A DNA stretch of 64,000 nt from a virus (lineage: Duplodnaviria > Caudoviricetes). The position numbers and the translations under genes were made by a program. Below the pieces are notes generated by a model. That model saw nothing but the letters and a program-made list of their open reading frames with translations. It was not told the origin of the DNA and did no database searches. Positions 40,882 through 54,609 of this stretch are shown here, piece after piece; positions within the stretch are counted from its first letter, which is position 1; the number at the start of each line of letters is the position of its first letter. The stretch lies in the IMG/VR virus record IMGVR_UViG_3300010429_002123. One strand, 5' to 3'.

Positions 40882-41045
40882 AACATTGATAAAAATAAAA
40901 TAAGTGATAAATCCAGTCACTGACTCGAAGTTAAGTCTTTCTTAAGACTTTTTGAGTCAAAGGCTTAGAAAACTTTCAGTTTAGAGAGAGTGAGTAATTA
41001 AGCCAATCTAGCGGAGTTTCTAGAGAAACATGATTAGTTGGAAAG
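40882..41045 (+). ncRNA. Structured guide-RNA scaffold copy 1 (omegaRNA/tracr-fused-like)
   Basis: Downstream of TGcTATAAT (40867-40875); homologous to five other copies with compensatory changes; ends in the 30-nt repeat. Confidence 0.8.
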
Positions 41046-41169
41046 TACACGCCTTTCTAAGGAAACATATTTAGATGGAAAGGATAGAGAGTTTCCTTTG
41101 AAGAAAAGTTTCTAAAGGAACATGATTAGATGGAAAGTTTTAAAGGAGTAATTATAGTTAGGTGGAAAG
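41016..41169 (+). CRISPR. Mini-array 1 (3 repeats + degenerate 4th)
   Basis: Repeats at 41016-41045, ~41054-41082 and 41108-41137, degenerate to 41169; spacers ~8 and 25 nt. Confidence 0.7.
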
Positions 41170-41201
41170 ATAAGAAAAGGTAGGAAAAGAGGAAACAATT
41201 T

Positions 41202-41864
41202 TTGAAAGAAAGAATAAAACTTGTTCCCTGTGGGGTAGGGACGATTATTACTCTCCCACAGGAGTTAGAATCTTATTTTTTGGACTCTGCAAGGGAAGTG
41301 CGGAAAAAAGGCAAAATAAAAATTAAATTCGAGTTAACACCCCAGGCCAAAATCTTAGACATATATAACCTGCTTTATTACTACAGGTCTAAGAAGCAAC
41401 CCCTGCTTTACACTTTAACCCTTTTTGATGAGCTGTTTCTTCTGAAAATAGAAGAATGCGAGTATGGTTTTGTGTTGAGGGGGTCACCCGTAACTCTCAT
41501 TGTCCGTGGGTTACTGGGAAGAGCAGAGACATTTGATGAGAAGGAGTGTGTTATGGAAAACTTTAGAGAGTTTTTACCTAAAGACCTGACTATTCAGGAA
41601 GTAGTCAGAGAATTTCAAGGAAGATGTAACGCTGTAAGTTTCAAACTGAATAGAGAGATTCCAGGTACCATCTCTGTATTGGAAGAAAGATTTTCTGTAG
41701 AAAAAGGCTTTGGTTTAAAAAGAACTTTCTTCACGGGCAGTAATGGGGACGCTCCCCCCAAGAAAAAACCTCTTTATACGATTTCTGTCACCGTTCGGGA
41801 ACTCGCTGGAGCAGAAGGGGTTCCGATTCCTGAGATTTGCATAGAGGGACTGTCTGCCGGTTAA
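41202..41864 (+). CDS. Hypothetical protein between scaffold copies 1 and 2
   Basis: 220-aa ORF, TTG start. Confidence 0.5.
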   Translation: MKERIKLVPCGVGTIITLPQELESYFLDSAREVRKKGKIKIKFELTPQAKILDIYNLLYYYRSKKQPLLYTLTLFDELFLLKIEECEYGFVLRGSPVTLIVRGLLGRAETFDEKECVMENFREFLPKDLTIQEVVREFQGRCNAVSFKLNREIPGTISVLEERFSVEKGFGLKRTFFTGSNGDAPPKKKPLYTISVTVRELAGAEGVPIPEICIEGLSAG

Positions 41865-41904
41865 AGAAAGTTTCACAGACCGTTAAAAAGTTTTAAAAAT
41901 TGGC

Positions 41905-41933
41905 TTGACAATCTTTACTATTCGTAGTATGAT
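41905..41933 (+). promoter_or_regulatory. Promoter for scaffold copy 2 and nuclease gene
   Basis: TTGACA-17-TATGAT. Confidence 0.75.
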
Positions 41934-41940
41934 TATTTAA

Positions 41941-42106
41941 AGAACACCAACGAAAACAAAAATAACCGATAAGTCCAGTCGGTGACTCGAAGTTAAGTCT
42001 TTCTTAAGACTTTTTGAGTCAAAGGCTTGCAAAGTTCTCGGTTTATAGAGAACGAGTAATCAAGCCAATCTAACGGGTTTCTAAAGAAACATGGTTAGAT
42101 GGAAAG
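41941..42106 (+). ncRNA. Structured guide-RNA scaffold copy 2
   Basis: Stems ACCGA/TCGGT, GACTC/GAGTC, AAGTCTT/AAGACTT, GGCTTG/CAAGCC, GTTCTC/GAGAAC, CTAAC/GTTAG. Confidence 0.8.
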
Positions 42107-42144
42107 ATTTCATAATTTCTTTAGAAACGTGGTTAGTTGGAAAG
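42077..42144 (+). CRISPR. Mini-array 2 (2 repeats)
   Basis: Repeats at 42077-42106 and 42115-42144; 8-nt spacer. Confidence 0.7.
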
Positions 42145-42254
42145 AATGAGGGTTTGTTGGAGTTTTCGGAGAAAAGACTTTAAAACCCGGTTTTTCGGAA
42201 AGATGGGAAAAGTTTTAAGGTTCAAAAGTGAAAGAATTAATAGGAGGGAACGAC

Positions 42255-53040: not shown

Positions 53041-53664
53041 GTGCTACCTGTGACCGAAAAAATAAACAGACTCGAAGTACATCACCCCCTGTGTGACAGC
53101 CACGAGGGGTTTCCCTGTAACTTCCCCAAAGAGTGTAGAGTAAATTTTACCCTCAAATGCTCCATATGTGGTAAAGAAGAACAGTTCTTTACAAAACTGA
53201 AAGATGAAGAGCTCTTTTCCAACAGGGAATGCAAGAGTTGTGCCGTGTCTCGAACAGTAAGTAATTTTGTGCAAAACTTGGACTTGGCAGACCTTACACT
53301 GCTTACAAGTCCCTCTATGGAGGCAACCTGCGAGGGTAATCTCATATCCCCTAAATTTCAAGCAATGATTGACCATCATCAGCACCTGGTTGATTTACAA
53401 AATTATTTCGAGGACAGAATTATTCGGGGCTTGTGCCTGTCCCAAAACGGGCAAAAAACCGTACGACCCAGTAGTCTGGCTCTCTTAAGACAGCAGGCAG
53501 AGTTGTTTGAAAAACATATTCAATTATCGTGGGTGAGACGAGCCACTTTAGCAAGCGGGGGAAACATACTGTCTCTCACTCATGAAGAGGTAGTAAAGCT
53601 GGAGTTAGAATCTCGTCTGAGGGCAGAAAAAGCCTGTATATTAGTGAAAGAAGAGGAAAGCTAA
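53041..53664 (+). CDS. Hypothetical protein (Cys-containing)
   Basis: 207-aa ORF. Confidence 0.45.
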   Translation: MLPVTEKINRLEVHHPLCDSHEGFPCNFPKECRVNFTLKCSICGKEEQFFTKLKDEELFSNRECKSCAVSRTVSNFVQNLDLADLTLLTSPSMEATCEGNLISPKFQAMIDHHQHLVDLQNYFEDRIIRGLCLSQNGQKTVRPSSLALLRQQAELFEKHIQLSWVRRATLASGGNILSLTHEEVVKLELESRLRAEKACILVKEEES

Positions 53665-53665
53665 G

Positions 53666-53914
53666 GTGAAAGAAAAACCAGACACGGAAGTTCTGAAAGC
53701 TATAACCTACCTGTTAGAATTAGGAAGAACATCGGATTACTCATTAGAGGACGAACAGCAAAGTATTTTAGATACTCTTCTGTTAAACACTTACTATGCG
53801 GTAAAAGAACATGACGAACGCAAGGAAGAAGAGACCAGACTTTTCTGTGAAAAACTGGGTATTAACAAAACCTCTATAGTCATAGAAGAGAAACACGTAG
53901 GGGAAAACCACTGA
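53666..53914 (+). CDS. Hypothetical protein
   Basis: Coupled ORF. Confidence 0.45.
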   Translation: MKEKPDTEVLKAITYLLELGRTSDYSLEDEQQSILDTLLLNTYYAVKEHDERKEEETRLFCEKLGINKTSIVIEEKHVGENH

Positions 53915-53964
53915 TTGTTTTTTGTAAAAAACGTCTTGACAAGTTTGGCGTCCCGTGTTACACT
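53915..53964 (+). promoter_or_regulatory. Conserved early promoter
   Basis: TTTTTTGTAAAAAACGTC-TTGACA-17-TACACT. Confidence 0.75.
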
Positions 53965-54005
53965 GAGATAAAAGAGAATGCTTAAAAAGTAGAGAGGAGA
54001 CCTGA

Positions 54006-54371
54006 ATGATTGTGAGTATAGAGCCCACGATTGAAAGAGTATTAAATGTAAATACGTATCTCAACGAGAGGGAGAAAAAAGTTGTTTTAGACCTGGTAAA
54101 GCTGACAGAACCTGGTAAGTTTATCTACCCGGAAGCCTGCCAGCGGAAAGGTGTTCCCCTGCACGCCAGTTCCTACGCTCTGGACAGGTTAAAAGAGAAA
54201 AACTTTCTACAGAAACTGTATGTTCCTTACTGTCTGGACTGCCACAGGTTTGTAGGAGACTTCAACACAATCTTCGAGGCTATATATGAACTGCCTTCAG
54301 ACATGGAGTGCCCACACTGTGATTCGGTAAATGTGGTTCCGAAAATAGTTTATAAAAAGCTAAGTAATTGA
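54006..54371 (+). CDS. Zn-ribbon-containing protein
   Basis: CLDC...CPHC; GAGGAG RBS. Confidence 0.5.
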   Translation: MIVSIEPTIERVLNVNTYLNEREKKVVLDLVKLTEPGKFIYPEACQRKGVPLHASSYALDRLKEKNFLQKLYVPYCLDCHRFVGDFNTIFEAIYELPSDMECPHCDSVNVVPKIVYKKLSN

Positions 54372-54378
54372 AGTAAAT

Positions 54379-54403
54379 AAACCCTGTTCCCAAGACAGGG
54401 TTT
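54379..54403 (+). terminator. Stem-loop
   Basis: AAACCCTGT-TCCCAAG-ACAGGGTTT. Confidence 0.5.
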
Positions 54404-54434
54404 AAGAACGCTTTTAATTAAAAATCTTTTCATA

Positions 54435-54609
54435 GCATCGACGGAAAGTTAAAAATAAACGACAAATCCAGTCGTAGTCCTGAAGTTAACTTCTTTTTAG
54501 AAGTTTTTAGGACAAGGCTTAGAAAGTTTTCAGTGTGTTAGTCACTTAAAGAAAACGAGTAATTAAGCCAGTCTAACGGGTTTCTAAAGAAACATGGTTA
54601 GTTGGAAAG
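54435..54609 (+). ncRNA. Structured guide-RNA scaffold copy 6
   Basis: ACGAC-AAATCCA-GTCGT; GTCCTGAA/TTTAGGAC; extra hairpin inserted in the stem-3 loop. Confidence 0.8.

Follow-up and report, generated by a model that had tools for sequence, protein, structure and literature searches.

What would a phage do with at least 13 copies of one folded RNA element, scattered through its genome and each leading into a miniature CRISPR array? The question arises from a 64,000-nt stretch (hereafter the window) of IMG/VR record IMGVR_UViG_3300010429_002123, a 183,650-nt virus record with a CheckV completeness of 78%, in which a sequence-only reading had described six such copies as functional guide RNAs akin to those of TnpB (omegaRNAs) and Cas12f. 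The source is a large wastewater phage; its DNA is present in anaerobic-digester and activated-sludge runs, and the TnpB-derived protein that it encodes (the effector) was found again, the same, on contigs up to 234 kb. The copies share a fold with homology to the omegaRNAs of IS605 insertion sequences (IS) and a common array format, the record holds a single TnpB gene with an intact RuvC domain, and one spacer matches its protospacer perfectly. Most likely, the scattered RNAs steer the phage's own TnpB-type DNA cutter.

The 13 full scaffold copies of the record are 63-89% identical in pairwise comparison, and six of them lie on the + strand of the window (copies 1-6; through the end of repeat 1, 40904-41045, 41966-42106, 44636-44775, 49778-49917, 50633-50772 and 54459-54609), the first comprising helices P1-P4. 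All full copies lead straight into a 30-nt repeat with a GTTT start and a GAAAG end (41016-41045, 42077-42106, 44746-44775, 50743-50772 and 54580-54609 in copies 1, 2, 3, 5 and 6), scaffold and repeat 1 being contiguous in the DNA in 13/13 copies (2-3 nt linker). There follow zero to four more repeats with unique spacers, mostly 35-39 nt long genome-wide, and the repeats differ between copies by a mean of 4-5 positions. Two further scaffolds are truncated and lie inside a tRNA cluster (L083, G000:C1:163500-165200), where, between the tRNA genes, one retains P1-P3 and the other P1 only.

Is this fold maintained as RNA? The stem variants listed in the sequence-only reading were all located in the copies that it named, save that the outer part of stem 3 is of a GGCTTA/CAAGCT type with one mismatch in copy 5. 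The 11-nt insertion in stem 3 of copy 6 (54535-54545) does fold as a hairpin; two copies outside the window (S02 and S10) carry other hairpins at this site, and all three insertions coincide with a hairpin extension in the IS RNAs discussed below. Across the 13 genome copies (the alignment row of S01 lacks its first 16 nt), 98.1% of helix cells are paired, as against 32-53% in slid controls, and both sides have changed in 16/46 pairs. Tree-aware parsimony counted 33 joint changes on the same branch in stems 1-3, against 7.3±2.1 in matched unpaired columns (0/1000), so that the covariation claimed for these stems holds in the larger alignment. Specifically, P1, P2a, P2b and P3b covary, while in inner stem 2 the compensatory pairs, three in number, trace back to a single event on the tree. 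There are 46 G-U combinations against 8 of A-C, and in 13/13 copies folding favours the + strand over the - strand, which together argue for an RNA on the + strand; folding z-scores range from -2.6 to -6.3. The proposed anti-repeat helix, CTAAC:GTTAG, reads CTAGC and ATTAG in copy 1, and compensatory change was seen in 0/5 of its pairs; an extension of this helix into the pseudoknot strand was discarded, pairing in 5/13 copies only. An Rfam search of the window returned no family at the gathering threshold or at E<=5. Contigs of RNA run X2 span the entire region along with its ordinary genes, and some of those over the cassettes are deeper (27-136 versus 5-13); since expression cannot be ranked by contig depth and DNA may have been carried over, the run was set aside as evidence of expression.

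From what did such an RNA descend? Relatives of the effector that were checked have a Y1 TnpA transposase gene upstream of tnpB, so that the source family is IS605 and not IS607. The IS607 label was dropped on this ground, as was an IS607 TnpB with a serine recombinase TnpA and RAGATH-18 RNA; the window has no Rfam match to the latter, which is unlinked to the protein family of the effector. The IS605 tnpB genes are followed by a 150-190-nt RNA whose helices come in the order of the phage scaffold, and a covariance model built from 35 IS605 omegaRNAs and zero phage sequences placed its top four matches in the 64 kb on four of the window copies, with P1-P3 in register helix for helix (best E 0.0023). 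The scaffold is, by this comparison, homologous to the omegaRNA of IS605-family TnpB, and copy 3 starts 83 nt 3' of the effector stop codon, the ancestral omegaRNA position. As in the IS200/IS605 system (ISDra2, PDB 8h1j; also IS605 elements of Firmicutes type, for example those of phages c-st and phiCD211), a single RNA comprises scaffold and guide, a 5' stem-loop pairs with the nucleotides that immediately precede the guide, and the protein has the RuvC D/E/D residues, with ~40-45% identity to Firmicutes IS605 TnpBs over the RuvC half. In contrast to IS605, the phage system shows no TnpA or mobility, takes its guides from CRISPR spacers and not from flanking DNA, has 13 cassettes per gene, and combines a protein of 765 aa (versus ~490) with a pseudoknot of 4 bp (versus 5-6).

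Given this ancestry, the copies might be non-autonomous IS605 right ends, that is, scars resembling miniature inverted-repeat transposable elements (MITEs) in which mobilisation would maintain the hairpins as DNA features. Their origin in an IS605 end, the dispersal of the copies and the two truncated copies amid tRNA genes would all suit this view, yet the transposon context is lacking: Y1 TnpA was not found in the record, there is one tnpB, and pairwise identities of 63-89% indicate no recent mobility. Moreover, the G-U bias is confined to one strand, and the guides are unique spacers with a perfect foreign protospacer, so that we consider MITE-like scars very improbable. The earlier statement that the copies are not decaying IS scars stands for the 13 full folds, which covary, but fits less well with the two truncated scaffolds and with first spacers of 7-22 nt in 4/6 window cassettes. 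Tree-aware covariation, strand asymmetry, IS605 homology, an adjacent RuvC-intact TnpB and a real protospacer instead support the claim of functional RNAs under purifying selection, similar to omegaRNA and Cas12f guides.

The pseudoknot, between the TCCA of the P1 loop and the TGGA of the repeat end (40912-40915 with 41039-41042 in copy 1, 41974-41977 with 42100-42103 in copy 2), had been said to be defined by covariation within the genome, a claim that the 13 copies do not support: 0/4 pairs are double-changed, and TCCA is invariant across them. Its cells are paired in 50/52 cases; in the partner strand, two positions wobble as U-G and two pairs at the end are broken. The chance that a random 7-mer of the genome forms at least 4 Watson–Crick pairs with the repeat end is 7.9%, which makes the in-genome complementarity weak taken alone. 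Support for the pseudoknot comes, in the sequences compared, from relatives and not from the genome's own covariation. In IS605 RNAs the final seven nucleotides are the partner of the P1 loop, and two positions of this pairing vary among A-U, C-G and U-A; two pairs have double changes and 94.8% of cells are paired (two invariant positions were preset by the search pattern and carry no weight). Closer to the phage, the tree places its protein nearest to P0014 and the L015 protein (those two together with support of 0.999), and P0193 is 56% identical to P0014; these three lie on phage-like contigs on which a scaffold directly behind tnpB is fused to arrays of 30-nt repeats. Here the loop follows the repeat end: L094, with a repeat much like that of the phage, has a 5-bp TTCCA:TGGAA pairing, which becomes TCACA:TGTGA in L098 and L015 (two compensatory changes, the register being kept) and TTGTA:TACAA in L100, and L057, L071 and L012 add more matched pairs. 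Cognate loop:repeat-end runs average 5.0 bp, as against 2.45 for non-cognate combinations (of P1 loops picked by eye), and the anti-repeat changes in step with the repeat among CRISPR-linked relatives. A pseudoknot ahead of the guide segment is a conserved feature of both TnpB and Cas12 RNAs, that of ISDra2 comprising only three Watson–Crick pairs (PMC10097598; see also bioRxiv 10.1101/2023.11.20.567912). We are highly confident that the TCCA:TGGA pseudoknot exists.

The relatives hold further features. Sister loci with a scaffold–array fusion span L098:9157-9950 (~11 repeats), L015:4408-4662 and L094:4702-4936; in each of the three, tnpB is preceded by a long inverted repeat that looks perfect or by a promoter region, and repeat 1 by a TGTCAG-like remnant of an IS end, which would favour a captured foreign repeat over an origin from the omegaRNA end but also pairs locally. 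On contigs of 65-91 kb, L100:4668-6375 and L101:4668-6530 encode the P0050 TnpB (553 aa), followed by three tandem scaffold–array cassettes with diverged 36-nt repeats. P0193 and P0194 carry SQF/NQK variants near RuvC-III. CRISPR-linked IS605 TnpB members on other branches (L057:5981-6706, L071:5946-6224, L012:5955-6400) have repeats of their own whose ends pair with the P1 loop, a distribution pointing to repeated, independent acquisition of arrays.

Which protein would such RNAs serve? The effector gene (42255-44552, + strand) encodes a TnpB-derived RuvC nuclease of 765 aa (774 from a GTG at 42228), the sole TnpB-family member in the record, with RuvC residues D435, E551 and D646 intact, no zinc finger or C4 motif, and long N-terminal and acidic insertions. 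Its relatives are many and about 500 aa long. It matches NF040570 with E 1.8e-14, under the family cut-off, and PADLOC reports Cas12u4 (E 6.7e-9) and Cas12f (E 2.1e-8), both weak matches at the RuvC level; a sequence search of the PDB returned nothing. Its structural model (predicted template modelling score, pTM, 0.41, with low-confidence regions) has fold matches to AsCas12f, ISFba1 TnpB, Cas12m and ISDra2 TnpB (best E 1e-11). Genes for cas1, cas2, cas4 and Y1 tnpA were not found in the 78%-complete record.

A target is known for one cassette. The first spacer of copy 5 (50773-50808, + strand) matches 36/36 positions of a single non-CRISPR site at L104:10610-10645, without flanking repeats, on a contig of ~42.3 kb repeatedly assembled from digesters; the 5' flank of this protospacer ends in GACA. 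The contig encodes a type I restriction–modification system, Mrr, GmrSD, Macro-NADAR, the candidate defence protein PDC-S11, ArdC and a Rep-like protein; it is a mobile element rich in anti-phage defence genes, perhaps a plasmid or an integrative element. Rad52-like and ArdC genes are common to it and the phage (L104:6618-8579, ~68% DNA identity), and a metagenome-assembled genome of Candidatus Eremiobacterota has an annotated fragment of its 204-aa protein cluster, a weak lead to the host. Elsewhere, four spacers had no target in IMG/VR, two arrays had none among phages or plasmids, all other spacers had none in ~30 kb of the 42-kb element, and no spacer self-targets were found in the record.

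The protospacer is mostly intergenic and lies about 200 nt 5' of the Rep-like gene, a position that would also suit a complex that binds DNA mainly as a roadblock or repressor (compare TldR and Cas12m); alternatively, the RNAs could soak up host TnpB or Cas12. The large unusual insertions and low-confidence regions of the protein (pTM 0.41), as well as several cassettes whose guides are too short for cleavage, are consistent with binding, whereas all three RuvC acidic residues are retained and full spacers of 36-39 nt are in the majority genome-wide. We regard roadblock or sponge functions as unlikely.

Still less probable, in our view, is that these are classic viral mini-arrays feeding a host class 1 complex, with the upstream structure only a leader or stabiliser. 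The 30-nt GTTT...GAAAG repeat with its 36-38-nt spacers resembles class 1 repeats, and this counts in favour of mini-arrays, as does the failure to find adaptation genes in the record. Mini-arrays that exploit host systems are known (PMC11656645). Against them, the upstream RNA is an omegaRNA homologue whose loop follows the repeat end across lineages, the repeats are far more variable than host-matched ones should be (mean 4-5 differences), the record has its own effector, and no host array with a matching repeat was found, the phage host itself not being identified. Nor did scans of IMG/VR, JGI and GTDB yield a second carrier of the repeat or scaffold, the matches being chance ones.

Terminal repeats of the arrays are the most degenerate (a mean of 4.5 differences from consensus, versus 2.7 in first and 2.2 in middle repeats), which fits array growth at the scaffold end. 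L100 and L101 come from two strains that encode an identical protein; they differ in their scaffold-proximal spacers and share the distal ones. In the window, copy 5 (array end 50868) and copy 6 (36-nt spacer at 54610-54645, repeat 2 ending at 54675) have full first spacers, whereas cassettes 1-4, the closest to the effector gene, have intact folds with first spacers of 7, 8, 22 and 9 nt. Copy 1 has four repeats to 41169 and decaying spacers of 7, 25 and 2 nt, copy 4 has spacers of 9 and 36 nt (repeat 3 ending at 50022), and repeat 2 ends at 42144 in copy 2 and at 44827 in copy 3. The short spacers may reflect recent deletions, or cassettes that give their scaffold in trans to later CRISPR RNAs (crRNAs). 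The last 14 nt of the 22-nt spacer of copy 3 are shared with the second spacer of cassette S10 (44754-44797 region versus L086), hinting at recombination between cassettes.

We consider it quite probable that the system is a phage-borne TnpB-to-Cas12 intermediate in which the unsplit scaffold and repeat 1 would act as a natural single guide. In this reading each copy is a gene for a ~140-nt scaffold whose ancestor was an IS605 omegaRNA of Firmicutes type. The ancestral plan is retained (P1, with its loop paired to the nucleotides preceding the guide, then P2, P3 and a stem at the end), and the final 30 nt now form repeat 1 of a mini CRISPR array. Scaffold, repeat 1 and spacer 1 would be transcribed as one guide, the TCCA:TGGA pseudoknot would seat the spacer in the 765-aa nuclease as in ISDra2, one nuclease would serve 13 cassettes in trans, and the complex would cut host mobile-element DNA such as the 42-kb element with its restriction systems. 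New spacers would join at the scaffold end, probably via host Cas1-Cas2, a supply reported for other systems without adaptation genes (PMC11656645).

Several points weigh against this reading. A model in which only the first spacer guides leaves the 7-22-nt first spacers of 4/6 window cassettes unexplained, and the alternative of scaffold–repeat pairing in trans would involve short helices, one of 5 bp at about -5.3 kcal/mol and another of 4 bp. Because only 1 of ~15 full-length spacers has a target, no protospacer-adjacent motif (PAM) is derivable. The absence of cas genes is not proven in a record 78% complete. The other covariance-model matches are individually weak (E 0.4-0.9), with two copies unreported and the 3' end misaligned; the clade of the phage protein with L094/L015 has a FastTree support of only 0.757; and the P1 loops of the cross-system comparison were chosen by eye. 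Finally, transcription of the cassettes, RNA binding by the effector and DNA cleavage are predicted activities.

Other features of the window may bear on expression. A sigma70-like promoter (41905-41933, + strand; TTGACA-17-TATGAT, 11/12, a consensus match only) precedes copy 2 and the effector gene. A CATCGAC-like motif lies ~20 nt 5' of P1 in most copies (49757-49763, 50614-50620, 54437-54443), perhaps marking the unit's 5' end or acting in a promoter, and a GC-rich inverted repeat (44563-44596) between the effector stop codon and copy 3 is a possible terminator or processing signal. The region also holds phage replication genes, including one for an 826-aa DnaB-like helicase (46713-49193) whose Pfam match ends at residue 348 and whose remainder looks like a putative intein with a homing endonuclease.

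How new is this design? TranC systems (Jin et al., Cell 2025) are described as transposon–CRISPR intermediates, one of which, a TranC9, is phage-encoded and phage-targeting (PMC13639567, PMC13565253, bioRxiv 10.64898/2026.03.27.714800). As described there, TranC shares with the phage system a TnpB-derived nuclease, short CRISPR arrays of unique spacers, no cas1/cas2 and an RNA descended from the right-end element RNA (reRNA); in TranC the reRNA is split into a tracrRNA (the trans-activating RNA) plus a crRNA, whereas the phage scaffold and repeat 1 are contiguous in the DNA and the unit is multiplied at dispersed loci. Cas12f (AsCas12f1, PDB 8j3r/7wju) gives the best fold matches and likewise combines a repeat:anti-repeat stem with a pseudoknot, but identity is only 13-15%, and the phage system has no zinc finger, a 5-bp anti-repeat and no separate tracrRNA gene. 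Re-fused, duplicated tracr–repeat RNAs are described for the sigma-TnpB clade; from these and from sigma-linked dCas12f omegaRNA arrays (PMC10691335) the phage system differs in its intact catalytic residues, true multi-repeat arrays behind scaffolds and direct IS605 ancestry. The nearest phage precedent in function is the Cas12r-CRISPR of Thermus Lalka phages (bioRxiv 10.64898/2026.04.20.719267), likewise a phage-encoded TnpB-like nuclease with a short array that targets other mobile elements of the host; Cas12r, however, has no scaffold and needs only its crRNA, which a single array encodes 15 bp past the gene. Stand-alone trans-acting omegaRNAs (PMC10691335) similarly pair dispersed scaffolds with one effector in trans, although those are mobilised and use flanking DNA as guide, whereas the phage ones carry arrays with acquired spacers. 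TnpB–array association has arisen ~50 times (PMC12669027). The kind of system is thus already known from TranC, Cas12r and omegaRNA duplications, which limits the surprise, and the unsplit, multiplied cassette is a variant of it.

We tentatively suggest, as an idea somewhat less likely to be right than wrong, that the unsplit guide RNA doubles as array leader, so that a new spacer behind the scaffold would be a ready guide needing no tracrRNA or maturation, and that the repertoire would grow by copying the cassette to at least 13 places and not by lengthening an array, with guides that destroy the host's defence-carrying elements. A small phage clade (L094, L098/L015, L100/L101) has the same design with one to three cassettes. 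As a snapshot taken by nature, the system would capture the TnpB-to-Cas12 transition at a stage where a CRISPR array has been gained but the RNA not divided. Its 13 diverged copies and the sister phages provide a map of changeable pairs, and lineages that have swapped loop and repeat end together offer ready-made compensatory mutants with which to test the pseudoknot. RNA-guided counter-defence is suggested by the perfect match to a restriction-bearing element, which also gives assays of PAM and cleavage a genuine target.

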